A DNA stretch of 64,000 bases from a virus (Duplodnaviria; Heunggongvirae; Uroviricota; Caudoviricetes): the IMG/VR virus record IMGVR_UViG_3300029904_000001, positions 64,001 through 128,000 of that record. The stretch is one strand, 5' to 3'. The position numbers and the translations under genes are program-made. Below, piece by piece: positions 31,601 to 64,000 of this stretch. The notes under the pieces are model-generated. The model worked only from the letters and a program-made list of their open reading frames with translations, was not told the DNA's origin and did not search any database. Position 1 is the first letter of the stretch, and every line of letters starts with the position of its first letter.

Positions 31601-34600
31601 TGGATTTATCTGGAAATTAGCTAAAACTGGATTACTATCAACTAAATCAATTAATTTTTCAAAATTTAAATTAGAATAACAAGTCAATGTGTCATCTAAT
31701 GGATTTATTATGAATAATTTATTTAAAGTATTATAGATAATATCAGAAGCAACTCTAACGTATTTTTCTTCAGGACTTCTAGTTAAGCCAGTTTCTTCAA
31801 TTTCTTCTAGACTTAATCCTTGTTTTAAAGTTTCATTAACATTTTCACTCGATTTTTCAATTTCTTCTGGCAACTTAGTTAAATCATTAGCGGCTTTATC
31901 TATAATATTATTATAATAAGTACTAACAGCAAAGAATGTTTTAAGTGATACTGCAGTAATACCAATAACTTGTTTACCTACCATATTTTGCACCTGCATC
32001 ATATACTTAACAAATGGATTGTCAGATGTAACATGTTTAACAGCTTCTCCAGCTTTCGAATCTTCTGCTGCTTTTTGAGGTTCATTCATATCTACAGGCA
32101 TGTGTAGATTTATTTGATTACGTGCATTTCTTGTTATATTTAATATATTATCAACTACTTTGTTTTGTAATGCTATTTCTCTTGTTCTTTGATTTTTTGA
32201 GTCGATATTAGTAAGAATGTTTCCACTATTACTAATGTTATAACTCATTATATATAATTTATCTATCATTTATGTTAACTATATATCGCTATATAGATCA
32301 GATTATCTCTTTGTGAATAATCACATTCTCCATTTCTTTTTATAATACTCCTTACGGATAATCGTTGAACCTTTCTTTAAAGATTTGGCTGCGGATTGTC
32401 TACTAGAGAGTTTCCCGCAATTAAGAGAATTTTACTACGACAAGATATTTATCGTAATCTGAGCCCTCTAGCCAAGTTTGAACGCGAGGAACGTATATAT
32501 CGTTTATTTTTGAGTTTGTTAGCATTACAACCTTCATAGGCATGTAAGATTGCATACCCTGAGTAGGAATACGTGCTCCAACTAAGTATAAAGATTTTTG
32601 GAAAGCATCAAATCGTTTTTTAGCTAAATGTTTGAATTTTCTTTGAAGTTGATACTCTTCTTCTTTAATAAACTTACGTTGATCTTGATTTTGGAGATTT
32701 ATATCATATTGGAAATTAGGATTTTGAACTAAACTATCTCTGTTTAATTCAGCTAATTTTCTCCAATTTTTACTTTGATAATTAGTTCTAGCTAATTCAA
32801 CTTGTTGATTATTAACTAATTCTTGAATTCTATCTAAAGTATTAACAGTAATTACGTGATGTCTATGTCCGGCATTATCTAAGAAACTATAAAAATTTTT
32901 GCCATCTGGTGATGTAAACTCTTCTCCTTTAAAATAAACTTTATTCTCGTTTATTTGGAAATCTTCGTTTTTAGAAAAACCTGCAACTTTAGCAAATTGT
33001 TGTTGAATTTCTTGTTCACTACCATATTTTACTAGTATTTGTTCTCCCTCGTCTGTATATAATACAACATCGTATAAATCAGAATTAACTTCTGGTAATT
33101 GATATTGCCAATTTAATTTGCTAATAAAAAATTCTTCACCTTTTGCTAATACATCAGAAATATTTTCATCATCTTCTAAACCAAACTTAGCAGCATCTTT
33201 ACGTCCAATTATAATTTCAGCTGGATCTACCGTATATTCATTAGTTTGAAATGTATCGTTTCCATCTCCAAACACATAAATATCTGAAATTGCTGTTTTA
33301 TTTTCAAGTGCTTTTAAAAATTCTTCAGTTCCTTTTCGAGCTGTTTTTAATAATTCTCCCTTTGAAACTTTATCAACATTGAATTTATCTATAACTTGAT
33401 TACGATAATTCATAATAAATGGAAGTATTTCTAAGTCAGATATTCCAAAAATATCTTTAGTAAGTTTTATAATCTCATCAGAAGGATTATTCTGTAAATA
33501 GTGAGATACTCTAACAGAGTTAATGTCATAAATACTATATCAGTCAGCTCCTACTTTAAAACGAGTATTTGATTGTTTAAGATTTTTGGGTTTAGTGGTT
33601 CAATTATAGAAAGTAAATCTATTACCATATTGTGTTAAAAAATTTTTTAGATAATCATATTTATCCCAAGAATCTATATATACGGTATGTAATTTTTTAG
33701 TTTCTGTATCAAACACAACAATGGTATCCTCAAAATCTGCTTGTCAAACAGTATTCAATCTATTTAAAAATGGGTTACGAACAACGTTTCCATTTGTATC
33801 CGGTAAAAAAGCTTTGTTGATAAAATCATCAATTTTAGCATTTATTCAAGGATTATTTGGCTGATTTAAACGTAAATCTTCTCTAACATTATATATACGT
33901 TTAGCTAAAGTATTATAATCCATTGTAGAATCTCCAATTCGATAATATTGTATATAGTTATACGAAGGATTTAATACTCCTGCAAAACCAGAATATTTAC
34001 GTCTAATTCCACTTTTATTTATTAAAGATATAATAGTAGCAATAAAAGCACCATTAATGGTAGGAGCACTAAATGGAATTCGATACTGTAAACTGTTATC
34101 TTGTAACGATTGATTTGCTTTCATTACAAAGGCTTGTGCTAATCCAATAGTATCCCGATCATTATTAATAAACGCATCAACAAGAGCTTGTCCTAAAAGT
34201 CGATAAAGTTTTACAGAATCTTTATCATTTATAGCATCGTAAAAATCTCCAAGTGCTTCAACAACTAATTTTCCGATATCATTATAAACGTTATTCACAA
34301 TACCTAAACTATATCCGTTTTGTACTAATGAACTTAACATCTGAGTCATTTCAGTAACTTCTGCTTCATCAATTTCATGATCTGCGTTCATTTGTACTCC
34401 TCCAAAAGCAGTAGACATAGTAATAGTATCTAAATTACTATCATCCATTCAATGCGAAGTATCATTAACGTTACCAGCTCCTACTTTAATTGCCGATTTA
34501 TTAACAGCATAAGCAATAAATTTATCTTTAAGATCTTCATCGGCAACAATATTCATTAATATATCTAAATTTGTTTCAGCATATACTAATTTTTGATTAG

Positions 34601-37600
34601 AATCAAGTTCAGCAGTATACGCTCCTCCAAATAGTTGGTCAATATCATATAAAGTGATATCTTCAGGTTTCTTAGTAATAACTTCTACTGGAATAACATT
34701 GTCAATATCTAAAATAGTTCCATTTCTGTCTGTAACTAACTCCATTCGAGTGTACGAAACAGTTCCATCAGAATTTTCTTTTTTTACAATACCTTGAATA
34801 TATCTCCAAGTTTGAGTTTCTTTATCAAAATAATATAAATCTTTATTTTTAGTATTAAAATAACGAACCAAATCTATTTTCTTACCAATAGGAATGTTGT
34901 GCATCTTTTTAAATAATTGTTCACCACTCATATTGGAAGTTTGAGACATTTGTCTACGAGCGTTAGTTAGTGCGTATACAGCCCATTTAAGAAGAGTTGG
35001 ACGACCATAAATAGCATCTACGTCTCCCATAATTGTTTTCTTATCGTAGCCAACATTAGCATCACATAAAGAAACATTCTCCATTCTGGCTTGTAATGGA
35101 CTAGAAATACCAGATCCATCCATAGAATCTAAATCTCGTTTTTCCTCTCCAATCATGTTTCAAACAGTAGCAGGAATATCTTTTAAGACAGCTATATTTA
35201 TAGTTTCTGCAACTCCATGTTTCATTCCTTGTAAAAATGGATGATACGTCGCTCCCATAATTACAGCACGCTTATTTTGAGCTATAAGACGATTGGCCTC
35301 GCTATATTCAAAATAATCGTCTTTATATAAACCGCCTTCTTTATTCTTATTTGGATGTGCGTATACTTCACCTAATGTTAGGGAATTATATTCATTAGAG
35401 AGTATAATATCAGATAAGAAATAAGCTTCTAATAATGGATTAAGTACAATTTCCATTTCTGGATCATTAGCTAAAAACTGCGCAATATTATATTTAGTAA
35501 TTTTTTCGCCTTTTTTGGTTTTAGCTAATATCATATCGCCAGAATTCTGATAAAATCAAGTACTGAAGTTAGAATTTCCAGATAATTGATAGGCACTATT
35601 ATTTCTAAACTTATTAAATGTAATATCGTTATCTAATAATTGTTGTAAAAAGATACGTTTTTGATTATTTAAACGTTTCTTAACTTTTTCAGGATTATTA
35701 AAGGTATTATATCAATTATAAATAGTTTCATTCATTAGTATTTTCTTAGATTTACCGTCTTTATAATAATGAATATTTTCGAATAAGTCAATGTGTGCGT
35801 CTTTAAAGGCTTTCTGAATATCTGCTTCAGAGAGTTGATTATTTACTATAAAAGAGTTAATACTATCTAAGGAAGTAAAAGTTTGACCAAAAGCATCACT
35901 TCAATCCTGTAAAATATTAGTAACTACTTTTTCCATTTTAGTAGCACGTAAAGTAGAATATACTCGAACTAAACCTGTATTATCACCATTATTTATACAG
36001 TTTTGAATTAATTCTTTTATATTTACTCACGTGCCATTAACATCCACATCATCCTTAATATTAAATGGAATAACATAATGAGTTCCTTTATCTGCAAAAG
36101 TTGTACTTTGAAATTCTACCTTATCTTTATCTATATTATTATAAAAATCACTAAAAATAGCAATATTCATCAATTCTGTAGTAGTTAAATCACTTGGAGA
36201 TTTAACTTCTCCTCCAATTTCAATATTAGATCTAATATAAGGTTGTCCAATCATTTCCCTATTTCTCACAATTAGATTATCCTCATACATATTATATCTT
36301 TCTTTACCAGTACGTTTTTGATGTTGATCAACAGCATCTTCGAGATGATTCATCATTGCTGGTACATTTTGAGCAAGACTAATTAGTTGAGTAGTAGGGA
36401 CGCTATTTCCTTCTAGATTCTTAATTACACTTATAGTATCCGAACCAAATAATACACTTAATGTATTAGCTATTCCATCTAAAGTTGTATGATAACTTTT
36501 AAAATCAAATAAACCGGATTTAGTTCATTCGTAATTTAGTTTAGAATTTATATTTCCAGCAGTTATAATCATTCCTAATACTGGAGCAAATGCCTTAAAA
36601 ATCGAAGTATTCTGAGAGTTAATTTGTTCTGATATACGTTGATAATCATCCGGTAATACATAAGAAACTAAATCTTGAATTATTTTTTTGGTAGTAGCTT
36701 CATCTAAATCATCGCTAGTACGAAAAGTGTATCTTCCATTGTTATATTCATAAGAAATAGTAGCTTCATCTCCTTCATCAGTTGTAAATGTTATTTTACC
36801 TTTACCATCATCAACGATATTATAATCAGTTAATAACTTCTTAAACTTATTTGGATCTTTTCTAAAAACTGCAATAGAAGATGCAATAACATCTTGTAAA
36901 CGATATTTTTGAATATTGACAAGACTATCCCGTAAATTCTTACCTTCAATTAAATTTGTAGTTGGATCTAATTGATACGAAACATAAGTAATAGGAACAT
37001 TTTTAAAAAACATTGCTGTAAACATGTCTTTTATATCTTGATCAATATCAGATTCATAAATATTCTTTTTAATTGAACGTAATTTAGAAATAAGATATGT
37101 CTTACGTCTATCGTTTACATTTGAAACATTACTTACTCAATCAATATATTGAGTTAACACATTAGACATATCCATCTGTGCTCCTTTCTTTAATTCTTTA
37201 GATAATGTTTGTAGTTCTGAAGGTGGATACATCAAAGTAGTCTTTAACGAAGCCATTGCTGAAGTAAAACCTTGTAATCCAATAGATGTATTAGGAATAG
37301 GTATATTACGAGCATCTAATTCAGGAAATATATCTAATAGAATATCTGCTAAATCAGAGGCTTGTTCAAATGCATCTGCATACTCACTAGATGAGAATTT
37401 ATAGAAATGTTCTACATTTGGTCCAGTATATTCATATTGATCAATGTGTTGATATTCTGAATCTTGATAATTACGTTTTGTTCTAATAAATGGAGTATTA
37501 CTTTTAATTAAATCATCAAATTTAGATAAAATCGAATATGTATCACGTAATGTATTCTTTTTATCTTCACTTGCGTTTTCATATAATAATTTAGCACTTT

Positions 37601-47469: not shown

Positions 47470-49290
47470 TTAAAAATTCGTTCGAGGTTTTTCTCCTTGT
47501 TGTATTTGTCTTGTATATTTATTTGCTTCTAATTGTGCTGTTGTATTTTGATATCTACTAGCAGGTGCTACATCATTATTATATATTAAGGTTCCAGCTA
47601 ATGCATTATCAATAGGAATAAAGATATTACCCATGTAGAAATTTTTCTTTTTGCCCACTCTGCCAACATCATTTACTTCATCTTTAGCTTCATAAGGACT
47701 ATGATATTTAACAATATTTTCATATAATGATTTTACATCTCTACCTTCAGAACGTTCTAAATTATATAGATAAGGAGAATCTTTATCAATATCTACTAAT
47801 TTCGTATTAACAATAGCTCCAAAAGTTAAAAATGCCATTGTATTTTTAAAATCAATGGTTCCAGTTTGTGTATTATAAGTTGCACTACCCTGAAAATAAT
47901 CATCTACTAGTTGAGCAATATATCCTGGATCGGTAATACCTTGTGCTTCTATTTCATCTTGTAATTGTTGAGCTAATTCTTGTTTATCAAAATCTGGAAC
48001 AATTCTTCCACCAACATCTTTATATGGTAACATAACTCTATATAAAGGTGTAGACGAATCATACATTACTTTATCATAATCTGTTGGATTAAGTAACTGA
48101 TCTCCAAATGAAATAGAGTCTTTACGTGTTATACCTCCAATACCTAAACTATCTGTTAATACATTAGCTAATGTAGTAGAAGGAAGTGGTGTTTTTCCAT
48201 CTTTATCCATAATAGTTTGAGCAGATTGACCTCATGCTAATAAGTGAACAGTGGATTCTCTTGGGGTAATTCTAATCATTTGATGTTCTCCTAATCCATT
48301 TCCGTCAACATATCTTTCAGGTAAAGTTCTTTCTACAGTCTTGCCAGAAGTAGTAACATTAGCATATCTTGGATCACTAGCTGTAGCAGTAGAATCATAA
48401 TCAACTGAAGTACTACTATCTAAATGATTCGATAAAGCTTGTATAAGTAAATCGGCTGAGTGTAAATTAGGATCTTGACCTTCTGCTGCAGTTTTAGCTC
48501 TTAACAATTGTTTCATGTTAGTTGGAAGAGCATTATAGATATAATTAATTGCTTGTTGTGCTGTTGAATTATCTATTTGAGCTTCTTGTTTAAACTTATA
48601 ATAACCTTGAGGTCCTCCGGCAATTAATCCATATAACGATTCTTCCATTTTGGCTAATTCTGAATTAGTATAACCAGAAATAGAACGAGTTCCAAAATCT
48701 AGTATTATACTTTTAGCATAATCTACTATATCGTTAACTCCAATTGAACCAGACATAGAATTTAAAACTGAACTATCAAAAGGTGTAGCTTGTGAACGAT
48801 ATTCTAATATATAATTATTAGTTAAAGGACTATATTTTTTCTGATTCTTATAATATTCATCTGGATTAATAGCAGAAACTTTTCCTTCTTTATCCATTAC
48901 ATACATTTGTCCTCTATCATTTAAAGCTATCTCATTTCAATTTCCAGTTTCTGTTAAATGTTGAGTAGCAGCATCATATAAACCTTTATTATGTGCTACC
49001 ATATTAGCCATAGCTTGAACACGAGCAAAATCCGACATAGATCATTCTCCAGTCATTTCTGCTCTTCTTAAGAAACTAGTAGCTTTATTTAAAAATAGAT
49101 TTACATCGCTTGGTAGTCCATTTTCCTGTAATACTTCAAGAATTTCTTTTTGTATATCTCCAATTTTACCAGTGTTTGTTTCAGTTTCTTGTGTTGGAGT
49201 TTGACTTGCATTATCTTGATAAGAAGGCAGAAAGGGAGTATAAATTATACCCCCTACCTGTTTCTTCTCTATTTTTTGACGTATTTTCAT
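47470..49290 (-). CDS. Putative virion cargo protein (606 aa with TGA=Trp)
   Basis: Three track ORFs share one frame; N-terminal KQVGG motif. Confidence 0.75.
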
Positions 49291-52200
49291 TTAAGAAATA
49301 GATTTCATAAATAATTTAATAACCGCATCATGTAACTTTTCTAAAGCTTTTGCAGTTTCTTTATTTCTATTAATTCAGATCGCTTCATCGGGTTTTTGTC
49401 CAGTATGACGTTGTTGATATTTTAAAGTTCCACCCTTTTTAGCAAGAATAGTTGGTATTCTATATGGCCATTGTACATCTAATCCACGATTGTGTAATCT
49501 AGCATTTTGTAGATCTTTAAATAAACGAGTTTGATTTTCCTGGAAATGTCGAGGATTAGTTCTTTGCCAATAATCCATCCAATCTACATAAGGACTTTTA
49601 TCTTCCAAAGCCATATAAGCATCATAAAAGTCTTTACCGGCATTTCTCATACCTAATTCATAGTCGTTTTGAGCAACTGCATTCTCATATTGAGAAATAG
49701 CTTGTAAAGCACGTTGTCTATTCTGATGGAACCAGTTTCTACCTTCCATAGCAAAGTTAGCAATAGACTGATTATTAGCTGCAATTCTACCTTGATCTAT
49801 TTGAGCATCACGTAGTAGTTTATTTAACATTTCCTGTCTATTAAATAGAGCTGTTTCTCGTCTATCTTGTGCATAAGCTCTACGTGCAGCTAAATCGTTT
49901 TGTAACCACTGTGAATATTGTTCAGAAGCTTTAAGATTACCTTCTAATTCCAATTGCCTAGCTTGATCCTCATTCGTTTGACGCATAGCATAATTAGTTA
50001 ACACATCAGTAGAAGTTGGAACAAAGAATTGTCTCTTTTGCTGAGCAGCATTTTGATAAGCTGGAGTTATATGGTCTTGGTAACGATCATATATTTCAGT
50101 AGGCATTTCTTTTTGAATAGGCTTATTAGCTTCTTTCATTTTCTTGAACATGTAGTTATTAGTAGCAATACTACGTGCTAATTCAGCCGCTCCAAATAAT
50201 AATTGAGGATCAAACGTATTAACTTTTGGTTTATAAGATGAAGGATTTAAGCCATCTTCTATAATTCGTCCGTTCTCATCAACATAATTAGCTGTTAATT
50301 GTGGTACCGATAAATTTAAATCCTCAATTTCTACTTGTAAGTCTTCATCTGGAATCTCAATAGAATCAATATTAATTTCAGGAGCATTAGGCAATTGTGT
50401 AGGCTTATAAATTCTTCCAAAAGCATCGTTATATAAATCATGAGCATATCCTAATCTCTTATCATTAGTTAGTCTTTCAAACTCTTCTAAAGACATATCA
50501 TAAACAGTTGATATAGTAGGATCACTTAAATTATAAGCATCAGGATTGATAGAAACGGATTTACCTGTTTTAGGATCTGTTTTTATATAAGATTTATTTA
50601 AAGAACCTGATTTTACTCCTTTTTCTTGTAATTGCTTTAAATATGCTTGTTTTGCTGCTTGAAATTCTGGATTATACCAATTATCTATATAATATTGACG
50701 ATAATTCATATAATCACTATTGTTTCCATAAGTGGCAATTCAATCTACATTACCATTAGAATCAAATTTAATACCACCACGTTCGTAATTAAAATAAGGA
50801 TTAGTATTGGTATTATTCATAACTAATGTAAAAGGTTGCGTTGTAGCTTGAGAACTAGAAGACGGAGAACTAGTCGATTGAGTTACAGGAGGATTATTAA
50901 ATGTATTCATTTCTGGATTTACAGAATAAAAATGCCCATTTCTAAATACAACATTATCTCAATTACCAGAGTTGGTTCCACCTTGTGCTTTAATTATACC
51001 ACCTTTTTTAAATGAAAGATTAAATCGTTTAATAAAGTCATCGATTCCAGTACCATGGAAATATCTGTCTTGATCAATATGATGTTGAATCATGTCACGC
51101 AACTCTGGACGAGCTTTAATAGCAGCATCAAATCTATTTGATAATATCTCTCCATTATATTCTCTTCCTCTAAACCCAACATCCATTACTAAATTTCTAG
51201 TTCCTTCAGATGATTTAATATTACGAATTTTATGTAACAATTCAGCTATGGATTTACGTAATTGTTGTTCTTCTGAGGTTCTAGACGTAATACGAGTTGG
51301 AACAGCGGGTGTAGAAACAGCTGGTGTAGAAGCAGGAGTTGAAGTTGGAGTATGAACATTTCATTGTAATTGATCGTTTTTAAATGGATTGGTTACTGGA
51401 ATTCCAAAAAAAGTTCTATTGGATCTTGGCATTACAGATCTACCAAATTGGCTTATAATCGTTTGATGTGCAGCAGGATTAGTTGCTAAACCATATCTAT
51501 AAGCTCTAGCTGCACGATTTCCTCAATAACCTAAATTGTCTTTTTGTAAAGTTTCAAATAATTTACTATTAGTTAAAGCTTGCTCATCAAATACATCCCA
51601 TTTTGCTGGTTTATTTTGTTTTACTTTACGAGCATCTTTTTTAAATATACCAATAATACCTTTTTTATCAGCCTTAATACCAAACGTTTCCATTAGTTTT
51701 GAAACATCTGTATCTTCTAATTTTATACCAGTTGATTCTACTTTTTGTTTTAAGAAATCAGTAGCTTGTTTAGTTGTTTTTCCATTAAGTTGTATTAAGT
51801 CTTCTACTGTTAAAGTGACAGATTTACCGTTAATAGTCTTCGTAATAGGTTGAATAGTATTTTCAACACCTAATTTCTTTTGTAAAGCTTTTAATGCGGT
51901 TCTGTCCAATTTTCTCGATATACCTCGACCTAGCAAAGCTCCACTTATTAAACCGGTGGCAATAGAAGACATTTCATCAGTAGTAATCTCTCCATCTTTG
52001 GCAGCATCGATAGTAGCGTTTATACCACTTATTGTACCAATTGCAGGAATTGCGATTTCTGAGGCTCTACCTAACTTTTGTGCTTTCTTTCCGAGTTTAA
52101 TACCACCAACGTTACCAAAAATATCGGTACTAGATAAAATATCTTCTGTTTTCTTAGTTGCTTCTGCAATTTTTTTAGCATTTTTACCTGCTTTTATAGC

Positions 52201-54492
52201 AGTTTTACCGGCTTTAGCCATTTTAGCAGCTTTAGCAGCACTACCAGCAATAGGAACTAAGGTAAGAGCATCTAAACCAAGATTCATTGCAAGTCTACCT
52301 AGATCTCCACCATCAAAGCCATCACGTTTAATATCAGAAACAAATCTAGATATTGTCCCTCCAAGTCCAGTAACAGCTCCAGCAATATTACCTAAACCTG
52401 GTATAAAAGATGCTCCAAGAGAAGCAGTATCTAAAGCAGTAGCAGCAGTAGCCCATTTATCTGAAGCATCTGTAAGTCCAGGACCTCCTCCAACTTTATG
52501 TAGTGTACCAATAGGGTCATCTGTATCGGCGCCTTTACTAATATTAGTAATTACATTAGAATATTTACCACCATATTGCAAAATTGGAATACTTCCTCCT
52601 TTTTTAAATCCTAATATATCATCGTACTGATGTTGTTGATACATTCAACTATTAGGATCAAAAGAAAAATCATTTCCATTTCATTTTTTATTAATCGTTC
52701 TTCAATAATTTCAACGATCTTCTATATCTCAACCTTTTTCATATTCTTTTTGAGTAATAGGTTGCCCAGTAGTAATTCTATCCATTAATTTAGTTCCATA
52801 AATTGGATAAAATTCACCATTTTTTCCTTTAAAATAATAACCACCACTATCGTCTATATAAATAGGCTGATTGCTAATGCCATCTGAGGTTTGTACTTTT
52901 GCAGCAACTTTGGATTTTGTATAACGTTTTCCCTTATCATCAAATTCGTAGTTAGGTTGAAATATTGGATCAGTTGGAGTTCTAATACCTTCAACTGGAG
53001 TAACTGGAGTTGTTAATCCGCTTAAATAATTTTGAAGTTTTTCTTGATTAGTAAAAATTTCATCTGCATAATTACTAACAGCAAACCGTTCGATTGGACG
53101 TCCATCTTTATCTCGATTTGTTGGATCAATAAAACTAATAATTTTCATTCCTTCTGGAACAGTATATTCAGAAGAAATATCTCTAAAATAGAAAGGATTT
53201 GTTATATATTCAAATCCTGGAAGTCTCGATAAATTAGAATTTTGATAACCAACAAATGAATTTGGTTGATCCATTCCAGCATATATTCAGCCAGAATTTT
53301 TTAAAGCATTTGAATATACTTCTGGAGTTCAATTTCCATTTTCATCGGTTGCATAAGCTGCATTTACATAGGATTGAAATGCACGATTAGCTTCATTATC
53401 TTCGTTTCATAATTGATTTTGAGTTCAGAATTTTCCACCTACAACAGCACCACCGGCTCAGTCGGTATTAGCGGCTCAATCCATATCCCTTAGATAGATG
53501 TTAGAAGTAACAGGAACTAATTCACCGTTTGTGTTAGTTGTATACAGATAAGTATTTCCATCCTCTCCTTTTCGTACATAATAACCAGATTGTTCAAGTA
53601 AATCGTCATTAAATCCAGAACCTTCTCAAGAACGAGAAACTACTGTTTGTTGAGCTGAATCAGTATCAGTTTCTCTGGAATCTTTATCAAATCCCATCCA
53701 TTTAAGCCAATCTAAATCAGTCTCGTTTAATTGATTAGCTCGAATACGCTCAATTAATCCAGAAAAAGTAAATGGATTTTCAGATGTTTGATTAGAAGCT
53801 CAAGCTGTACGTAAATCTTGAATATAACGATCGTTTTCGTCATCTCAACTATACTGTTTGTCAGCTTCGTCTTCAGGTAAATTTAAAAAAGTTTCAAAGT
53901 TTTTTAATCTTTGTAGATAACCAGCATTTTCAGGACCCGTTGAGAATGTTACGTTTCCTTTATCATCAGTATTATAATCAAACCAACTACTTTCATCTCC
54001 ATATAAAGCTGTTCTATTATCTTCAGAAGTTGTTTCTATTTGTTGAGATTGAATTGGATTGAAATTATAACGCATGGCTTCTTGCATACCAGTCATTCAT
54101 TGTTGTCTAGCATCTCCACGTCTATAATCTCTTCTTGCCCAACGCCTTTTTTGTCTCTCAGCTTGTCTTTGATTAGGATTAGTACGATTTAGATTTAAAT
54201 CATCAATAATATCTTGATTTGTTCAATTAACTCCAGTAAAAGTATTTTTTAAAGAATTATAAGAAACATTGTTTCCACGTTTAATTGAACTAATAACGTC
54301 ATTTAACCCAATTCTTTGCTGACTATTTGTACTAGTCGAATAAGCATTTGCTCAATTGGCTAAATCTTGATCGTCTAATTCTTGAACAACTCCATCGATA
54401 GTAATTCTATATGGTTTATGTTTAGTAGAAGTTTGATTGGAAGAGGATTCCGGATTTCCTCCACCTTGTGCAAATTTTCTAACTTGTGACAT
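49291..54492 (-). CDS. Large putative virion cargo protein with a Gly/Ala-rich hydrophobic segment (~1733 aa with TGA=Trp)
   Basis: ATG at 54492 (MSQVRKFAQGG). Five track ORFs share the frame down to TAA at 49291. Hydrophobic segment near 51950-52450. Confidence 0.78.
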
Positions 54493-54512
54493 ATATCGAT
54501 ATATATTATAAT

Positions 54513-54550
54513 AAAAATGAGAGACTAGCACAATATCTAATCTCTCATTT
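54513..54550 (-). terminator. Intrinsic terminator between the small Gln-rich gene and the giant cargo genes
   Basis: On the minus strand: AAATGAGAGATTAG-loop-CTAGTCTCTCATTT followed by T residues. Confidence 0.75.
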
Positions 54551-54576
54551 ATCTATTTATTTTATGAGGGACTATC

Positions 54577-54945
54577 TTATTTCTTCATAGTTCCACCACC
54601 GCAGTTCTTAGCTACTTTGCCACCACTGCAATCTTTCTTTACTTTTTTACGTTTACAAAGTTTTCCACCTTTCTTAAATACTGGTTCACCTTGAGGTTCT
54701 CCAACAGGCTCTGCTCCACCACCTTGTGCTTGCTGTAGAAGCATTAGAAAAGCTTGAGCACCTTGAGCTAGCATTTCACAATTTTGAGTTTGTAGACCCT
54801 GCATGAATATTTGGGCAATTGAAAGCAATGGATCTTGTTCTCCACCAGGTTGTGCTTGTTGAGCCATTGCAGGATCTTGAGGCATAGGAGCGGATCCCCC
54901 TTGCTGGAAACGTTGTACACGATCAGAATTTTTAACTATTTTCAT
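54577..54945 (-). CDS. Small Gln/Gly-rich protein with a basic C-terminal tail (putative virion/core protein)
   Basis: 122-aa ORF with its own promoter and terminator. Contains FQQGG and FKKGG and a Lys-rich tail. Confidence 0.75.
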   Translation of the reverse strand: MKIVKNSDRVQRFQQGGSAPMPQDPAMAQQAQPGGEQDPLLSIAQIFMQGLQTQNCEMLAQGAQAFLMLLQQAQGGGAEPVGEPQGEPVFKKGGKLCKRKKVKKDCSGGKVAKNCGGGTMKK

Positions 54946-55009
54946 AAATAAATAATTAATTTAACGTTAAACTATAATAAAATCTAATTTGTTATTTCTC
55001 GACTCGATT

Positions 55010-55041
55010 CAAAAATAGAAAAAATATTTGAAAAATCCAAA
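55010..55041 (-). promoter_or_regulatory. Bacteroidota-type promoter on the minus strand
   Basis: On the minus strand: TTTG (55041-55038), 20-nt spacer, TATTTTTG (55017-55010). Confidence 0.65.
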
Positions 55042-55064
55042 TGAACTTGTTATTTAATTTTAAT

Positions 55065-55095
55065 TTTGGAATTTTAATATTTTTAATTATCTTTG
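55065..55095 (+). promoter_or_regulatory. Bacteroidota-type promoter driving a short transcript
   Basis: TTTG at 55065-55068, 19-nt spacer, TATCTTTG at 55088-55095. Confidence 0.7.
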
Positions 55096-55192
55096 TATTG
55101 CAATCTAATATTGAATTCGAGAGAGTAGGCGTTCTGGATATAAATCACTCAGAAACCACTTTAATTATTTTATGTTTATTTTAAAGATTGTT

Positions 55193-55220
55193 AGGCGGGT
55201 AGTTAGTACTCGCCTTTTTT
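55193..55220 (+). terminator. Intrinsic terminator
   Basis: AGGCGGGT-AGTTAGT-ACTCGCCT followed by TTTTT. Confidence 0.75.
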
Positions 55221-55318
55221 ATTTTTATAATGTTATGTAAAATTTTTATAATGGATATGGTTGTCCAGTATAACAAAAGAGTTACGACAGGGTTGTAAAT
55301 TATAAAATTTAAAATAAT

Positions 55319-55350
55319 TTTGGATTTTAAAAATTTTTGTTTTATATTTG
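55319..55350 (+). promoter_or_regulatory. Bacteroidota-type promoter for the SF2 helicase-like gene
   Basis: TTTG at 55319-55322, 20-nt spacer, TATATTTG at 55343-55350. Confidence 0.72.
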
Positions 55351-55451
55351 TATTGATAGATACGACATATTGTACCTATTGGGTGACTCCAATAAAGAAG
55401 TTTCCACTGATAGATACACTATAAAATTTTTAACATTAAAAATCGAAAGTT

Positions 55452-56975
55452 ATGAAACAAATTATTAAAGCAAATCAAAATTCAAAGTTTTTATCTGATG
55501 TCATTGATAATTTACCATCCAAATGTTTATTTAATAAAGGTATAACTGGATGTGGAGGTACTACGCTAGAGATAGAATCGAAACGTGACTCTATAATTCT
55601 TGTACCTAATATAAATCTTGTTATAAATAAAACCTTTGTATATCCAAATTTAATTGGAGTATGAGGTGAAACTACTCAAACTGAGTTCAAAAGTAAACTG
55701 GATAAACATCTATTTAATAAGATAATTGCCACATATGACGCACTTCCAAAATTAATTGAATGACTTGGAGATACAATATATGATTATTTTCTATTAGTCG
55801 ACGAATATCATATTCTATTTAATAGCTATGCCTTTAGATATAAAGCTATCTCCTTTGTATTACAAAATTATACTAAATTTAATGATTATTGTTTTATGAC
55901 TGCAACTCCTTTAACTGATTATAATATATTAGAAGAAATCAAAGACCTTCCTCAAATTGAAGTACAATGAGAAGCAGCAATTCCAGTTAATGTGACAGTT
56001 AAAAATACTTATTTTACTAGCAAAGAACTAACTTCCATTATAAATAATAGTTTAAATGAAGATTATAATTGACATATCTTTATTAATTCAATAAACACAA
56101 TTAGGAGTATAATTAAAAATATTAATACTACTGATTATCGTACCATCTGTTCAAAAGAAGCCGCAAGTAAAGATAAATCAGAAGGAAAATTAAAAGTTAA
56201 ATCTATTAATTCTCCAGTTTGTAAAATAAATTTCTATACAGCAACTGCATTTGAAGGAGTTGATATTTACGATCCTAAAGGCAAAACAATAGTTATTTCG
56301 GATACTAATATAGCTCAATCTTTAGTAGATATTTCTACTTTATTTATACAAATTTGTGGAAGATTACGAGATTCTATATATAAAAATGAAGCATTATTTA
56401 TATGTAATACTAATAATCATCGTTATCTTAAATATAAAACAGAAGATGATTTTATAAAAGCAAGTAATGAAATAGAAAGAAAAGCCAAAATATTTGAACA
56501 AGATTATCTTAAATCTGAAATAGAATCTCAAGAAATAACTCAATCTTCCTGAGATTCTAATCCAGTATTTTATCAAAGCGTTTATCTTGGAAAAAGTAAT
56601 CAGAATGTATTTTATGATCCAAATCTTAAGAAAACGGATAAACAAAATTTTGATGTAATTACCAAAGTATTTTCTAGTACAGTAAATGTATTAAATAATT
56701 TAAATAACCAAGCTAATGTTATAGCTAAAATAGAAATTCCAAATTATGATTTATATAAAGAATTTTTTGATTTACTTCCAGACATTCAAGTAAAATCAAT
56801 TGATTTATTTGAACATTTAGCCAAATTTTTTAAAAAACACAAACTTATTTCTACTAAAGCAAAATCTGATTTTCTTAGTATTTGTTCTAATAAAAAAAGA
56901 ATAGAAGAAAATGGAGAAAGATTTTGAATTTACGATTTTACTAAACTAAAGTCTATAATAGGAAAAGGAGAGTAA
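55452..56975 (+). CDS. SF2 (DExH) helicase-like protein, 507 aa with TGA=Trp, antisense to the cargo cluster
   Basis: Translated codon by codon: GITGCGGTT, LVPNI, LLVDEYH, FMTATP, IFINS, YTATAFEGVDI, QICGRLR. Six TGAs; TAA at 56973. Confidence 0.85.
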
Positions 56976-56992
56976 TTAGCTCTCCTTTTTTA
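56963..56992. terminator. Bidirectional terminator between the convergent helicase and DUF192 genes
   Basis: AAAAGGAG...CTCCTTTT inverted repeat followed by a T run. Confidence 0.75.
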
Positions 56993-57000
56993 TTTTCTAT

Positions 57001-57588
57001 TTATTGTTGCACATATTCAGGTTCATTAGAATCTTGCTTACGTAAATACTCAAATATTTTCTTACCCAATCGTTTATAATCAGACTCTTTTTTGGTTGTA
57101 TAAGCTCTCTTAGCCATTCTAACTAGTGTTTTCGTATTTTTTATACTGAAAATGCGCTCAGAACCCTGTAAGACGGCTTGTACTTCTCCATCAGATCCAT
57201 AAACATACATTTTATTAGTTGGGAGATCTTTTCCTGGACTTAATTCATCATCTTCTACATCTATTTCATCTCCAGGTTTAACTCCAGAATTTTGATTTAA
57301 TTCTAGTACATATTGAACGTTATCTTCACTTAAAATAGTTTCATCATAAGGCATTCCCTTCTTTACAGATATTACTTCTCAATCTGAGTTGATAAATATT
57401 ACGTCTAAAGGGATACTGGTTCGATACATTCAGAATTCAGCCTTATGTGGATAATTATATACAAATAACATTCCCTCATCTGGGTCCATTTCTTCAACAT
57501 TCATTAAACCTTGCTCCTTTTCAATCTCTGTTTGAGCTACTAGAACATTATATTCTTTGTCATTAATTTCAAGATTAATTGTTTTCAT
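57001..57588 (-). CDS. DUF192 (COG1430) domain protein with a C-terminal extension (195 aa with TGA=Trp)
   Basis: AQTEIEKEQGLM...GMLFVY...EFWMYRTSIPLDVIFI...YVLEL; the Trp of the conserved FWM is encoded by TGA. Confidence 0.82.
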
Positions 57589-58849
57589 TTATTTTTCCTC
57601 CTTGTTTTAAATGTGGATCTGGATTGTTTCAATCAGGCATAATTCTAAAATCGTATGGATATAAAGATTTGCCATAAAATTTATCTGGATGCCCTCCAAC
57701 TTTTGGATAAACATGATACGGATCGATAATTTTAATATTTCCAAATTCATCTCATCCAACATTAGCAGGACGTACATCACTTATCTTTATCCCATTAGGT
57801 AATAATAATCAATCTTCAATAGTGTTTATTGCACCTTTTGCATTTAATTCTTTTCTGATACGATTAAAGAGTTCTTTCTCATGAATCATTGCATCTCTGA
57901 GAGAAGGTACATTGATTTTTCTTTGAGAAAAAATAAATGATTTATCAGTCTCTGGTCCAAAAGATCCTTCAAACCTTAAAGGTTCTCCAAATTCTCCTAA
58001 AACATTTTTACCCATATGTTGATTATAGATTCTTCGTCCAATATTATCATTAATATGCCCTCTAATTCCTATAACTTTTAATACTCTATCGCCATCAATA
58101 AAAACACTAGCTTCTCCTCCACCTAAAGACGTAGGTTTAATTGTTTCTCCATTATCAGAAATAATTTGCTGTATTTCTTTTGAAACATCTTTTCGTAAAG
58201 GTTGTCCAGCATCAATAGTGCCATCTAAAATTCTTTTTTGTCTTTCGAGAGCCAAAATTACATCTTGATCTAAAACATCTTCTGGAAGTTGATATAATTT
58301 ACGAACCTCTTTAATTTGTTCTGGAGTAATATAGCCTGTTGGCAAACTAAAATCTCTAACTTTATCTAACATTATTTTAGCATCCTTACCTAAACGCCTA
58401 GATATTTTAACAGCACTTCCTCCTGGAGCTAATCCAATTAATCCTAATCCAGCCATAGATAAACCAGCTCCAAATCCATCTTCTATTCCAGCTTTAATAG
58501 GATCTCAAGTCAAACCCTTTATATCTCCTATAACAGGAGTAAAATCTATAGCTGTTTCTACTACATCTCCTAATATCTGACGATTCCGTTTAAGTCTTTC
58601 ATCAACATTAGTTGGAACTTGATCTGTATGTGTATTATGTTGTACAGATTGTACAGTTCCAGTAGCATCTCTAGCGGGAATTATTGGTTTAATTTGTAAT
58701 GGCTGTGAAGTAAAATCTGGTAAACTAATTCTTTGTCTTCCATTTACCGACTGTTGTAAAGGAGAAGTAGCTCTTTGAACTTGCTGTTCTGGAGTTTTAG
58801 GTCCAGATTGTAACAAAGTTAATATTGGCGAATTAAATATTGTCGGCAT
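57575..58849 (-). CDS. Pre-toxin-like N-terminal region fused to a protein-kinase-like domain (424 aa with TGA=Trp)
   Basis: N-terminal DFTPVIGDIKG...AGLGLIGLAPG. Kinase-like motifs LGGGEASV, VLKV, DVRPANV, IIDP. TAA at 57575-57577. Confidence 0.65.
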
Positions 58850-60494
58850 CTATCACTCCTCCCTTATTATCAACAGTATTATCTATAATCTCTTCTGCAA
58901 ATAACATTCCAGCTTGAATTGCTGCTTCATCAGAACCATCTTTATATAAAGCTTCAAGTTTTTCAGTTAATTCTTTAGTTAAGATTAATTCTCCAACTTC
59001 TATTTCTGCAACTTGAGTTTTTACACCATCTGGATCTTCAGTAGCTACTGGAATTCCTTTTGGAGTCATATCACTTAACTCAGGATTTATTTCATCTAAA
59101 TGATTTTTATGAGCATGATAAGCTCCTTCAACAATTACATTAGATTCTATACCTGGTTGTCCAAGTTTTCCTCCATCCTTAAACTTAGCTAATAAATTTC
59201 TAGCTCAATTTAATTTAGGCATTTTCATACCTTCTTTTCCAATAGCAAATTGCTGTCCGGTTATTCCTCCATATCTATTTCTATTTTGTTGAGCCAAATC
59301 AGCAGCTGCAGAAGAAGCACCTTCTTTTCTCATTCGTTGTACATCCGAAATTCCTGTCATTATGTCTCGTTTTCTATTTTGTTCTTGAATAAAACTATTA
59401 ACTTTACTTGTTTGACCTAAGAATTTACCTCCAGATAAATCTTCAGCAGAGTCAAAAGTACTCATATCGTAAGCACTTCCAACATTTGCTAATCTGCTTC
59501 TATCAATATCAAATTCATCAGATTTTTGAGCAAATGCGCCTAAAATTGATCCAACACCAGGTATTGTCGCTACTACATTATTTAAACCTCTATTTAAACC
59601 AGCATCTTCAGCTGCATCTTTAGATATACTAGACATTTGACTTCCAAGCATCTTACCTAATCCATCTGTTATCTGTAATCCTGCGGAAATTAAAGGTCCT
59701 CAACCAGGAATCGCAGAAACCGCGCCATATATACCAGAACGTACAGCTTCTTGCGTTTCATCTAATTGTTGAGCTGTTGGTCTATCAGCATATTGTCCTA
59801 CAGAATTTCCAAGAACATTAACTGCACCTCCAACTAATCCAGCAACAGCGCTAACAGCTTGTCCTGCTCCAGAGTTCATAAATTCTCCAGCTGAAACAGT
59901 ACCATCTCCATTAGTATCTCGTCTTGCGATTCTGTCAGCTTTTCTTGCAGCTTGTTTTTGTTCTCTAGCTAATCCTCGGAGTTCTTTTGCACTCGGACCT
60001 GTATTTTCTATACCTCGTAAACTTAAAGTATTTATAATTTGCGAATTAACTGGTTGTTGACCAATAGAATTAGTTGAATCTACGGATTCGATTCTTTCTT
60101 CTGGATTAGTAATAGCCCCTCTAGTAAAACCTAAAGATCCATCATCATGACGAATTAAACCAGGAGTTTTTGCATTTTGTTGCTGTTGAGTTAGATCTTG
60201 ATATGAGGGCGATGATGTATCGAGATCTAACTGACCAAAATTTTGTTTTTGAATTGTAGGAGGCGCTATATTAGTATCAATATATTTAGTATTAGCATTA
60301 AATTCAGAGTAATTTCTATTAATATTAGGAGTTTTGCCTAATACTCCATTTTGAAAATCTGGCATTTGTAATTTTGGCATTATACTACCTAATATATCTG
60401 TTTGTAATGGAGATACATTAGGTAGAAATGATGCCAAAGATACATTAAAACCACTTCCAACTTGACCAGCAGCTTGTTTTATATTCTCGTACAT
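58833..60494 (-). CDS. Putative virion cargo protein directly downstream of the muzzle gene (553 aa with TGA=Trp)
   Basis: Three track ORFs share one frame. Gly/Ala-rich hydrophobic stretch. C-terminal FKDGG..EGAYHAHKNH..GIPV..AEIEVGE. The position matches crAss cargo genes. Confidence 0.72.
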
Positions 60495-60497
60495 ATC

Positions 60498-63400
60498 TTA
60501 TGCATAACTAGTCATTATCATAGTTTTAATAGCTGATATTAAAACTAAATCTTTTCCTGTATATTTTATTCTAATCTTACATCACTTATCTCTAATACGT
60601 GTTGACTTCCAATCTTGTCTCTTAGTATCTATATCATTATTTCCAGTTACTCCATATTCTGCATTTTCTGCATCTGCTTTTCTAAATAGAATTGGATCTA
60701 TAGTTAGATATCAAACATCTTCTTTATATGTAATATTACCTCTCATACGTCCATATTCTTTAATATCATAACACTTTTGATTAGTTTTAAGAAGATATTG
60801 ATTCAATATTGGATCTCATTCAACAGTAGTATTTTTAAACTCTTCTGAGGTTTTAATTGGATTATCTTTAATTCAAGGTAATCTTTGAGATCCGTTTGTA
60901 GGATTTTTACCTTCATCTTTAATAGGATATTCTGGAATAAACGGCTCTCCTTCTTTAGGAAGTAATTTAACTGGAGTATTATAATTATCTCATTCTTTAG
61001 AAGAAATCGGATTTTCCCGTTTTTCTCAATAATCCTGATTATATTTCCAGAATATTCCAGCTTTATTAAATCCATAAACATCTCCAACAATTTCATATTC
61101 AACTTCAGAAGGTTGAACGTTATTAGAAATAATTACAAGATTATTAAATATTTTATGTAATCCAGCGGGTTCGTTAACTACAAATTCAAACTCAAATGGT
61201 TCTTGTTTATCATATCATACAGTTGGAAGAATTTCATTTGTTCTATCTTCATCAAAATAATTAATTTCATCAAAAATTCCTGCACGACCATGAACATAAA
61301 ATCCGTTTTTCATAAGTTTATCGTAAGCATCTTTATCCGCTTGATTTGACAATTTGGAATAATCAGCAACAATACCAAAAACCGTTTTAAATGTATCACC
61401 AACTGTTATTTTCTTTTCTTTAGTAATAGCATCTTCTACTTCTGTATAAGGAGTTGCTTTTACAATAAAATATAAATAATACAATTGATGTCCATTATAA
61501 GTCATAAGATTTGCAGGTAATTCGAATTGTCCATTAATATACGGAGTTAATTCTTTTCCCTCAGCCAATGTTCCAGATAATACTAATTTCTCTATTTTTT
61601 TACCTGTTTCTGGATCTTCTACTGACACTAAATCGACATTTAATAGTGTTTTAATATCAGTAGTAGGCTGAGAGATAAAAATTTCTGTTCCATTTTCATC
61701 TAAATAAGAAGACTTAATATCTTCTATTTCATAATGAAAATATTTAAAGAAATCGTATGCATTAACTTTTAAAGTTATAGTGTGATTTTTATTTAAATCT
61801 GTTCATAGATTGCTAGATGTATCTTTTGTATTAACACTTACAATACCCGCAGTAGCATTAATATTATCATAAATATAAGCTAATATTTCAGCTCGTTTTT
61901 TATCTAAAGAATAATAAATATTATTTACATTTTCAGAATAAAGAGGAACCCAAGAATATCTTGTCGATCATTTATCTAAACGTTCGTTATAACAAATGTT
62001 CCACTCTTCATCTTCTGTGTCATTATAAAACGTAAACATTATATCACCTTTATAATTATTATAATGTGATTTTACATTTCTTAATGCAATAGTTGGATAT
62101 TTATCTTTTTCTTTTAGTTTTATATGATCATTTAAATAACGTTGAATCTTAGCATCAGATATTAATTCTAATCCATTATTTTGAGAGAATCTTCATATTT
62201 TTTTAGCATATGTATCAACACCATAAACGCCAAGAGGAGTTCTTATTATCGATTCTTGCCAAATTGAACCATAATCTTGAGAAATAATACTCATTTGATT
62301 TTGTAATACCCCAGCACCATACATATGTATAGATTGTCCTGTTGTAGTAGCCATTAATGCTTTTTCATTAACTGGAATAATAGTAATACCATGTTCAAAT
62401 ATAGCTAAAAGACTCGTTCCTCATGATATTAACTTAACCAACCCTCCATATTGTCGATCCATATCTTTATAAGACAATCCTTGGAATATTCTATAGGCAT
62501 TTTGGAAAGCATCATCTTGCTGTACATTAGAGAACATTATACGGGTATCAAAAATATCTCTAGTATATGGAATATCTTGTACTGGTAGGAATGATTTTCT
62601 TCCAACAGTTGAAGAATAACCATCGTTAAGTTTTCAGGAATCTTCCAATTTATTTCCAGCAGAAGTAAAAGCACCAGTATTAGGATAGAATGAACGAGGA
62701 TTACCCATTAATGCCATCTCTTCAACATTAGTGTAATCTAAAGCTCTTAATCCAAGATTATAATTACTTAAACATTTTCAAGTAATTCAAGATCCAATTG
62801 GTACGGTATTAACATCACCTCTGTTTATCGATAATCAAGCGTCTTCATCTGTAGTATTATATCCATCATAATTATCTTTTCATGTATTTGGATCAATAAT
62901 TATTTCATTTACAGGAACATCTGAATCAACAAAATTACGTTGCAATCGTATTGATACAGTACATGTATAACAATCCCCACGCATAGCTCATATGGAAGCA
63001 TTTGGATCATCTCATTTTTTATCATCTAATGCTCATCTATCTGTAATAGCAAAGAATGGAGAATTATCGTTACCACGTATTTTAAAATATTCTTGTTCAA
63101 ATACAGATGAAAAATTACGTATTTTTACATTATATAGATACGCATCTTTTAGTTCTCCAGATAATCCTAAAAATGGACACCATATACCACGTAATAAATT
63201 TTTATTATCACTTGCATAATCTTGTTCACTAAAGAAAGCAATCTGTTTTACTTCTTCAGCAGCTCCAGCTCTTGTAGAAAAAGCTTGATTATTCATATAT
63301 TTTGTTGGAATATCACTTCCAACATAAATTGTTCCTAATTTATTAGATATATTGCTAATCTCTTTTGTGTCGGCTTCAGCAGTAAAAATTCTGTCATTTG

Positions 63401-64000
63401 TAGAATCTTGATGAATTTCTCTTGATTCAAATTCTTGAAATACAAATTCAGAACCATCAAAAGTAGATTGTAAAATAGGAGCGATACAAGGATCTATTGT
63501 TAATAACGCAGAAGTAGCTTTAAAATTAGTACTTTTCTTTTTAAAATTAGTACTTAATGTACCATTATCATCAATAAAACCTTCTGTTATATATAATGGT
63601 TTATTAGAACCTTCTGCACTTACTATTGGTAAGATAGGCACATGACTGGTTCTATCAATACCAACAGATAAACCTTGACATAACGTAGTCGGAATTCTTT
63701 TTTGTCTTACAATAAAAAATCCTTTAATTCCTAATTGTTGTAATCTTTCCCTTAAACGAGATTTCATACTTATTGTAAAGCCATACGGTTTTATAGTATA
63801 ATTTTTATGATCGTAAATCGCTAATCGTGTTGGAAGTTTAAACACTCCCATAATATTATCAAGATTGCTTCCATTAACTATAAAATCTTCTTTAGGAATA
63901 TAGTTTAATTTAACAGAGTCTCAACTACCTTCAACGGGTTTTGTTCTATGTCCACTTTCATCCAATTCATATTCAACAATTGGATTACCATTTTGTTCGA
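60498..64000 (-). CDS. Tail stabilisation/muzzle protein (P22 gp10-like), 5'-truncated by the window edge
   Basis: One frame is open from the window end to TAA at 60498. C-terminal RIRDKWCKIRIKYTGKDL..ISAIKT and internal WSTRYSW resemble crAss tail stabilisation proteins. Confidence 0.7.

Follow-up and report, generated by a model that had tools for sequence, protein, structure and literature searches.

The window analysed here, a stretch of 64,000 nucleotides (nt) that makes up bases 64,001–128,000 of the complete 176,910-bp virus record IMGVR_UViG_3300029904_000001, carries among its late genes a polymorphic slot in which a conserved N-terminal part is followed by exchangeable C-terminal domains. 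The phage is crAss-like, since the protein at the end of the window matches the Pfam muzzle family PF25731, and its record has direct terminal repeats. In the window the slot is occupied by the gene of a protein of 424 amino acids (aa), P0001, whose cassette is a predicted minimal Ser/Thr-type kinase, consisting of an N-lobe with the catalytic and Mg loops. On balance we favour the reading that P0001 is a modular accessory effector, which is packaged in the virion, ejected, and phosphorylates host proteins at the start of infection. The components of such a system, namely Kinase-PolyVal domains, polymorphic packaged phage proteins and crassvirus cargo, are known; what is new is their combination as a hypervariable effector slot in the crassvirus cargo block, with a module and terminal motifs of its own. 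A search of the literature found no paper that brings together polymorphic toxins and Crassvirales, or kinases and the cargo proteins of crAss-like phages.

The homologues of P0001 recovered by word-indexed and exhaustive searches share with it residues 1–150 and the last few residues only. Seven contigs have one gene order, in which the muzzle gene is followed by a gene of 500–553 aa, the polymorphic gene and a DUF192 gene (loci L005 and L006 have one additional 447-aa gene after the muzzle gene). When the window is set against loci L002 and L009, amino-acid identity is 89% over the N-terminal 150 residues and 91–93% for DUF192, and about 20% from residue 151 to the end, where the proteins are unrelated; the upstream 553-aa gene, at 63%, lies below the 89% of the conserved N-terminal module (N-module). 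At the DNA level, blastn reports approximately 87% identity from 59944 to 58420, then a gap, then homology again from 57591. The limits of the exchanged cassette (Table 1) follow from these two breaks: the left breakpoint (residue 143/144) lies inside the second P-G-x-G-D turn of the N-module, and the right one directly ahead of the DUF192 start. The cassette is replaced by recombination between almost identical flanks in sister phages. Clustering of the C-terminal parts, which covered those relatives of the module and of the kinase whose C-terminal parts are long enough to compare, yields at least 12 unrelated types, including several independent groups with an HExxH motif (zincins). The kinase cassette recurs behind three different leader classes, and an SLT lytic transglycosylase domain is present in one relative that has the module. 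SLT domains are found in internal virion proteins that are ejected, such as T7 gp16. An earlier reading of the window, made from the letters alone (the sequence-only reading), had proposed a swappable effector slot and suggested comparing orthologous loci; these do carry different C-terminal domains between near-identical flanks. Since kinases, zincins and unassigned folds interchange between flanks that are about 87% identical, the C-terminal domain is not required for virion architecture, and the same interchange favours an accessory effector over a structural part.

Variation around the slot takes further forms. The neighbouring 553-aa gene holds a second variable segment, since its first ~180 residues (59945–60491, minus strand) have no DNA homology to L002 and L009, whereas the muzzle end (94–95% identical) and the rest of the 553-aa gene (87%) on either side do. 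In L007 (765–3937) the muzzle end is followed by a 410-aa orthologue of the 553-aa gene, by DUF192 and then by the kinase protein P0031, which is encoded in the standard code and is placed after DUF192, not before it. A second phage lineage (L008, L017 and L018) has a slot of its own in a different neighbourhood, made up of a gene of ~105–157 aa, the polymorphic gene and a gene of ~96 aa; in two of these three loci DUF5856 comes next. The N-module is found in this lineage as well, behind a different leader, MKWNDLTMKERSDLM, which the proteins of the lineage have in common together with the tail GGKLKKKAKRF. Among the alleles are a kinase (P0015), a protein with an SLT domain (P0025) and one with HExxH (P0034).

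The gene for P0001 is real and under purifying selection, not a chance frame. The sequence-only reading had placed it at exactly 57575–58849 but had not stated its strand, which is the minus strand. It had also held that the frame is visible only with TGA read as Trp, and the frame is indeed open only if four in-frame TGA codons are read in this way (W115, W347, W366 and W407). Opposite the TGA positions, relatives that use TGG have Trp, Phe or Tyr (at W407, Trp in P0031 and P0030 and Phe in P0015), and TGA=Trp is therefore favoured over other readings. The natural variant P0002 (locus L019), which is 96% identical, differs by 19 synonymous and 15 non-synonymous changes; the ratio of non-synonymous to synonymous substitution rates (dN/dS) is approximately 0.2 overall and 0.15 in the kinase part. 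Besides P0002, more than 30 further relatives were found by the word-indexed and exhaustive searches. TGA=Trp is used heavily by the late genes of the window: there is no TGG codon in the effector gene, nor in the 606-, 553-, 507- and 195-aa genes, and several of the early genes (RNR and those of 264 and 328 aa) use TGG exclusively. ARAGORN finds eight tRNAs in the 177-kb genome (G000 31482–36547), none with the anticodon UCA. The motifs listed from the letters alone are all located in P0001, namely a low-complexity N-terminus (the first 85 residues, rich in Q, P, T and S), DFTPVIGDIKG (residues 102–112), GAGLSMAGLGLIGLAPG (127–143), LGGGEASV (242–249), VLK (256–258), DVRPANV (358–364), IIDP (374–377) and a terminal KQGG (415–418). 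The Q/P/T/S-rich spacer is missing from relatives with short leaders.

Direct searches of Pfam, PHROGs and the sequences in the Protein Data Bank (PDB) with P0001 gave nothing meaningful. An exhaustive phmmer search of 1.8 billion representatives, by comparison, found seven relatives over the C-terminal 200–280 residues at 25–34% identity; word-indexed profile searches for further kinase relatives returned nothing new. The alignment of the C-domain relatives (A2, in P0001 numbering) keeps the G.E..V loop (G243–V249, with G243–G245 and E246) and K258 of VLK, and is invariant at Q309, at D358 and N363 of a D....N motif, and at the Asp of a DFG-like I/F-D-P (D376). The glycine-rich loop (G-loop) with E246, K258, the catalytic D358/N363 and the metal-binding D376 are all intact in P0001. 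The relative P0031 scores 31.5 bits with Pfam Kinase-PolyVal (PF18762), above the gathering cut-off of 27 bits, and P0036 scores 24.5 bits; P0001 is linked to P0031 by phmmer with E 1.5e-6 among 1.8 billion proteins. Because Pfam misses P0001 itself, the family assignment rests on this transitive link, on the hallmarks of the family and on fold searches.

The A2 profile gives 258 weak matches to PDB sequences (best E 0.0086), of which the best 60, those listed, are all protein kinases, and two printed alignments pair sD.K..N.G....GN..I.D with the HRD.K..N...DFG region. An AlphaFold2 (AF2) model of residues 150–424 built with A2 reaches a pLDDT of 61.9 and a pTM of 0.61; a single-sequence model of the whole protein (pLDDT 34) was of no use. 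Foldseek with the former model, the structural check suggested at the outset, returns kinase folds for all of the top 50 PDB matches (best E 1.8e-3, probability up to 0.99). In a VIA-align scan of 48,161 chains, 50 of the 50 matches listed have the kinase fold (Z up to 6.7), the minimal kinases OspG, HopBF1, Bud32 and Ark1 among them. In BFVD, a 'large polyvalent protein associated domain' protein comes first (E 7e-6), rank 8 is a 'PolyVal Ser/Thr/Tyr kinase', and most BFVD matches are kinases; an Atlas language-model feature search with the near-identical P0002 places Kinase-PolyVal clusters first (0.89). Single scores are modest, and all lines agree, which makes a kinase fold of the C-terminal domain very probable and an affinity to Kinase-PolyVal likely. 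The kinase domain that had been claimed is thereby borne out by its catalytic motifs, by the affinity through P0031 and by fold searches that return kinases.

As hallmarks of the Kinase-PolyVal group, which occurs in Bacteroidetes phages and includes stand-alone forms, Iyer et al. [quoted passage not shown] In P0001 just 48 residues follow D376, with a model pLDDT below 50; E246 belongs to the conserved G.E..V, and Q309 does not vary in A2. Upstream of D358, A2 shows no conserved His, and a His-Asp insert was not recognised. P0001 and Kinase-PolyVal (PF18762) are thus alike in the missing C-lobe, the intact ATP-binding and phosphotransfer residues, the Glu of the G-loop and the Gln at the end of the N-lobe; they differ in that P0001 does not lie within a giant polyvalent protein but is fused to a dedicated N-terminal part of ~150 aa, and occupies a single-effector slot in a crassvirus cargo block. 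The kinase core is small, like OspG and HopBF1 (solved chains of 169 and 176 residues), to which the predicted model aligns (4q5h with Z 5.9 and 6pwd with Z 5.6, respectively). In the literature, OspG and HopBF1 are said to be without most of the C-lobe and to enter a target cell by injection. P0001 has no sequence-level relation to OspG/NleH, HopBF1 or T7 gp0.7, and OspG/NleH and HopBF1, unlike the phage protein, travel by type III secretion into eukaryotic cells. That a phage kinase can phosphorylate host translation factors has a precedent in T7 gp0.7 (PMC5512222), which, in contrast to the packaging proposed here, is made after entry and not packaged.

The same fold searches also return WbdD, the macrolide phosphotransferase MPH, AceK and a ChoK-like phage kinase, and the residue two past the catalytic Asp varies in the family (K, R or G); both would suit a small-molecule or glycan kinase (Kdo/WaaP-, APH- or choline-kinase-like) that modifies envelope sugars, lipids or a metabolite. 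This we hold to be quite improbable, since the best sequence and profile links lead to Ser/Thr/Tyr-type kinases and to Kinase-PolyVal, a group that Iyer et al. place nearer to the protein kinases (PMC5512222), and OspG and HopBF1, the nearest minimal analogues in structure, belong to the protein kinases.

The domain could also be no enzyme at all. If P0001 were a structural component of an ejectosome or channel, its N-module would be part of a trans-envelope conduit, as proposed for gp45 of the crassvirus crAss001, the variable C-terminal domains would be accessories that act on the envelope, and the kinase-like domain would be a pseudokinase or a binding module. The greater conservation of the N-module compared with the upstream gene (89% versus 63%), the likeness of its glycine-zipper-like segment to that of gp45, and the SLT and many HExxH domains of relatives, which could act on the cell wall, would fit such a role, as would a kinase domain in which the alphaC Glu and the HRD His were not identified. 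Yet the G-loop, K258, D358, N363 and D376 are invariant across relatives that are no more than 25–30% identical. Because the residues for ATP binding and phosphotransfer are invariant and the domain is under purifying selection, catalysis is favoured, and a structural role appears unlikely. An active kinase, in turn, should act inside the cell because ATP is cytoplasmic.

The N-module bears the signature of the family, the pattern ET.IDFTPVIGDIKGLT.DP followed by a Gly-rich hydrophobic GLGLIGL.PG(VGD). The invariant core in alignments A1 and A3 reads ET.IDFTP[VI][IV]GDIKGLT.DP, then about 20 residues, then MAGLGLIGL.PG(VGD), so that a module of ~60 aa comprises two P-x-x-G-D turns and a glycine-zipper-like hydrophobic segment. 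It is present as a single copy in its own genome and occurs also in a distant standard-code phage contig, L001, the sole locus found in IMG/VR. The sequence-only reading had taken this region for a PT-TG-type pre-toxin segment. What stands of this is a conserved segment before a variable C-terminal domain: the module ends at the breakpoint, directly N-terminal to the exchanged effector domain, just as in PT-TG systems a short conserved segment directly precedes exchangeable C-terminal domains (PMC3482391). Membership of PT-TG does not stand, as the PF14449 model (cut-off 23.5 bits) has no match on P0001, on its module segment or in its genome and gives sub-threshold matches to 8 of 24 related module segments (best E 0.026). 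The label thus describes a reasonable but weak resemblance between sequences. PT-TG toxins are, moreover, secreted bacterial toxins, whereas the module here lies in a phage cargo block and has no secretion-system leader. DUF4112 gives sub-threshold matches to 18 of the 24 segments (best E 1.2e-4), on the Gly-rich P-G-x-G-D part. An Atlas feature search with the module puts unannotated viral clusters first (0.94), with PT-TG clusters making up 7 of 40 (0.93). A match of the N-module profile to a TAL effector (E 2.5e-18) was discarded as an artefact of summed repeats, each single repeat scoring below 8 bits.

Gly-rich hydrophobic segments are seen elsewhere in the block. The Gly-rich half of the module has a weak, non-significant match (E 0.17) inside the 1746-aa gene (52210–52341, minus strand). 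Segments that are Gly-rich and hydrophobic are also borne by the 553-aa protein and crAss001 gp45, and cargo proteins may have this physical property in common.

The location of the slot is what links it to the virion. According to the crAss001 study by Bayfield et al. (PMC10172136), the genes after the muzzle gene encode the cargo proteins gp45 (C1) and gp46 (C2), found in virions, and then RNAP proteins; gp45, with an N-terminal hydrophobic helix, sits in the tail barrel ready for ejection. The effector gene likewise lies between the muzzle gene and the virion RNAP genes, ahead of RNAP-associated giants and at seven syntenic loci, which agrees with the earlier claim that it is embedded among virion cargo genes. 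The N-terminal helix of gp45 is a Gly-rich hydrophobic segment followed by a basic stretch, comparable to that of the N-module. No enzymatic domain or allelic polymorphism of gp45 or gp46 is mentioned in the passages of Bayfield et al. considered.

The best functional analogue of a loader with a payload is provided by the internal proteins of T4 and other T-even phages (IPI, IPII, IPIII and Alt), diverse proteins that are packaged and injected for counter-defence or takeover and whose only common part is a short N-terminal capsid targeting sequence ahead of highly diverse domains (PMC3012670). There is no sequence relation between these and P0001, and the conserved part is longer here (~150 aa, with a hydrophobic module); the P0001 family has a conserved C-terminal motif besides, and its packaging and processing are only proposed. 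MuF toxins, phage polymorphic toxins proposed to be delivered by virions, similarly combine a conserved, virion-associated N-terminal domain with polymorphic C-terminal domains (Jamet et al. 2017, PMC5576092). They belong to temperate phages of Firmicutes and have their slot in the packaging module, whereas the slot described here is that of a crAss-like phage and lies in the tail/cargo block; no Pfam family, the MuF domain included, matches the N-terminal part of P0001.

By analogy with the T4 capsid targeting sequence, a protein made late would be loaded into the virion through its conserved N-terminal part, in which a short leader and the ~60-aa module would serve for delivery; the exchangeable enzymatic cassette and a short tail with [FYL]xxGGK would follow. 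Ejection would then carry the protein through the tail and the envelope, either before the DNA or together with it, and the Gly-rich segment may aid the crossing of the envelope. Once inside, the kinase would phosphorylate host proteins before any phage gene is expressed, to the benefit of takeover or counter-defence, and an arms race with the hosts would account for the many different alleles. The sequence-only reading had likewise proposed a packaged kinase that would be injected with the DNA, with host defence or translation factors as its possible substrates.

It is important to point out that several observations weigh against this scenario. Packaging and ejection are deduced from gene position and architecture only. 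BLASTP finds no similarity to gp45 or gp46 (best E 0.5–0.6 for P0001 and 0.066 for the 553-aa protein), a pairwise comparison with which remote homology would still be compatible. The hydrophobic segment is only moderately so, with a best 19-residue Kyte-Doolittle mean of 1.35. As to the kinase, the Kinase-PolyVal model misses P0001 at E up to 1 and its genome at E up to 10, and no conserved alphaC Glu or HRD-type His was identified in the domain, for which reason its activity could be atypical or lost. AF2 confidence is middling, and at TM-scores of about 0.3 and Z below 8 single matches to the model could be chance; the fold searches carry weight because every match is a kinase, not through single scores.

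The missing similarity to proven cargo proteins would suit an effector that is made late, is not packaged and acts in the infected cell. Such a protein might be tethered to the membrane by its Gly-rich segment, and its variable C-terminal domains would serve, for example, superinfection exclusion, lysis timing or late host physiology; the hydrophobic, DUF4112-like character of that segment fits a membrane association. We nevertheless rate this as rather unlikely, given that the gene lies within the muzzle-to-RNAP block, which in crAss001 is a block of virion cargo, and that a conserved N-terminal part with exchanged C-terminal parts matches the packaged T4 internal proteins (PMC3012670) and MuF toxins (PMC5576092).

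The architecture of the slot also raises the question of a true polymorphic toxin with an immunity protein, aimed, in the manner of MuF toxins, at competing bacteria or phages and not at takeover of the phage's own host. In polymorphic toxin systems (Zhang et al. 2012, PMC3482391), a conserved N-terminal region is combined with C-terminal domains exchanged by recombination, and both are found here. The zincin-like HELGH alleles of L002 and L009 are, in addition, each followed by an extra gene of 180–182 aa (L002:7241–7789 and L009:5218–5760), linked to the allele as an immunity or partner gene would be. The two extra genes are 88% identical to each other, have no counterpart with any other allele and end with the same ...YENN overlap into DUF192; they are candidates for an allele-specific partner or immunity protein. 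Against this idea, the immunity gene that polymorphic toxins have immediately downstream is lacking in the kinase allele, in which, in contrast to MuF toxins, the DUF192 gene overlaps directly. The extra gene matches no known family, immunity families included, and the window gives no sign of lysogeny. A toxin–immunity pair is, in our view, highly improbable, and an accessory effector remains the favoured reading of the slot.

A further feature of the family is the terminal motif [FYL]xxGG[KR], represented in P0001 by LKQGGK (residues 414–419, window 57593–57610); the leader LLQSGPK is a degenerate form of the KFQxGGK of relatives. The strict motif occurs in the first 30 residues of 7 and in the last 25 residues of 11 of the 36 family proteins (shuffling expectation 0.23 and 0.14, respectively) and in none of them in between. 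It is enriched in the nearby 1746-aa protein (5 copies versus 0.17 expected) and is conserved inside the orthologues of the 553-aa protein; the muzzle protein and the remaining giants have no copy. Enrichment within the span 47470–60494 (minus strand) extends to the 122-aa protein (two copies), the 553-aa protein (one, at residue 438) and the 424-aa protein (one). The motif could be a signal for packaging, docking or cleavage. Tentatively, and with more doubt than confidence, one may see in the leader, the P-x-x-G-D/glycine-zipper module and the terminal [FYL]xxGGK a general code for loading, processing and ejection in this lineage.

Two other accounts of the motif were considered. KQGGKINENN might be a by-product of a Shine-Dalgarno site for DUF192 (AAGGAGGA, 7 nt, ATG), a reading that was rejected for four reasons: such sites occur at 2 of 34 window genes, both coinciding with GG peptide motifs; L007 encodes the motif as GGC GGA without an overlapping gene; relatives of the second lineage keep it with no gene start nearby; and the strict motif is confined to protein ends, above shuffled expectation. 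The final ENN may be constrained by the 14-nt overlap with DUF192. Cleavage by a GG-specific protease found no support, as the Peptidase_C48, C39 and C5 families have no match in the 177-kb genome.

Crassviruses are among the most abundant viruses of the human gut and carry megadaltons of cargo protein. To our knowledge, known crassvirus cargo consists of RNAP subunits and two proteins without assigned activity, and the slot, if the favoured reading holds, would be the first sign that crassviruses inject diversifying effectors as well. Sequence comparison and modelling suggest that a conserved delivery part combines with at least 12 payloads that can replace one another, among them a minimal kinase that appears active; T4 internal proteins are described as following the same logic, and it has been proposed for MuF toxins. 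If the loading code were true, an enzyme inserted between the two signals, whatever its kind, would end up in the virion and be delivered into the host, a natural plug-and-play delivery system, and the alleles (kinase, zincins and unassigned folds) would amount to a catalogue of the counter-defence repertoire of uncultured gut crassviruses. The invariant DFTP[VI][IV]GD of the module offers a sequence handle for mining such effectors in metagenomes, and the finding yields testable hypotheses on virion content, kinase activity and cleavage at the terminal GG motifs.

Table 1. Features of the polymorphic slot and its flanks, in window coordinates
Feature	Position	Strand	Basis
Whole effector gene, protein P0001, 424 aa, code 4	57575..58849	minus	Open frame and 96%-identical homologue P0002
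Leader (residues 1–20), then Q/P/T/S-rich spacer (to 85)	58595..58849	minus	Alignment A1, motif count, composition
Conserved N-module (residues 88–148)	58406..58588	minus	Invariant columns of A1 and A3
Swapped cassette (residues 144–419)	57593..58420	minus	blastn breakpoints; ~20% aa identity
Helical linker (residues 149–232), accompanies the kinase domain in relatives	58154..58405	minus	Alignment A2; AF2 helices
Predicted minimal kinase core (residues 233–380), no C-lobe	57710..58153	minus	A2, profile and fold searches, AF2 model
C-terminal tail (residues 381–424), low model confidence, contains LKQGGK	57578..57709	minus	AF2 model, motif analysis
Crassvirus muzzle protein gene, landmark of the cargo block	60498..63998, runs past window edge	minus	Pfam crAss_MUZ PF25731, E 1.7e-22
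553-aa gene, no assigned family, left flank of the slot	58833..60494	minus	17-nt overlap with effector gene
DUF192 gene, downstream, conserved right flank of the slot	57001..57588	minus	Pfam PF02643, E 2.7e-24; 14-nt overlap with effector gene

The window has a GC content of about 29%. Genes of replication and nucleotide metabolism occupy its plus strand up to ~24 kb, beyond which a run of minus-strand genes follows that includes giants of 1530, 1894, 3123 and 1746 aa; the effector gene, two genes past the muzzle gene, is part of a tightly overlapping run ahead of the giant RNAP-associated genes. The muzzle protein is at most 34% identical to those of two unannotated phage records from human faeces, which places the phage at a distance from deposited genomes, and tblastn against 50,697 GenBank phage records gave no match to the effector protein. 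The 553-aa protein on the left flank carries Gly-rich hydrophobic segments and one internal KFKDGGK. Beyond DUF192, a 507-aa gene (55452–56975), which has no match in Pfam or PHROGs, is the sole plus-strand gene within the minus-strand cargo block. Genes of 505–506 aa stand in the same place in L011 and L012, likewise opposite to the cargo strand, whereas L002, L009, L003 and L010 lack them, and the 507-aa gene is therefore best regarded as a variable insertion beside the slot.

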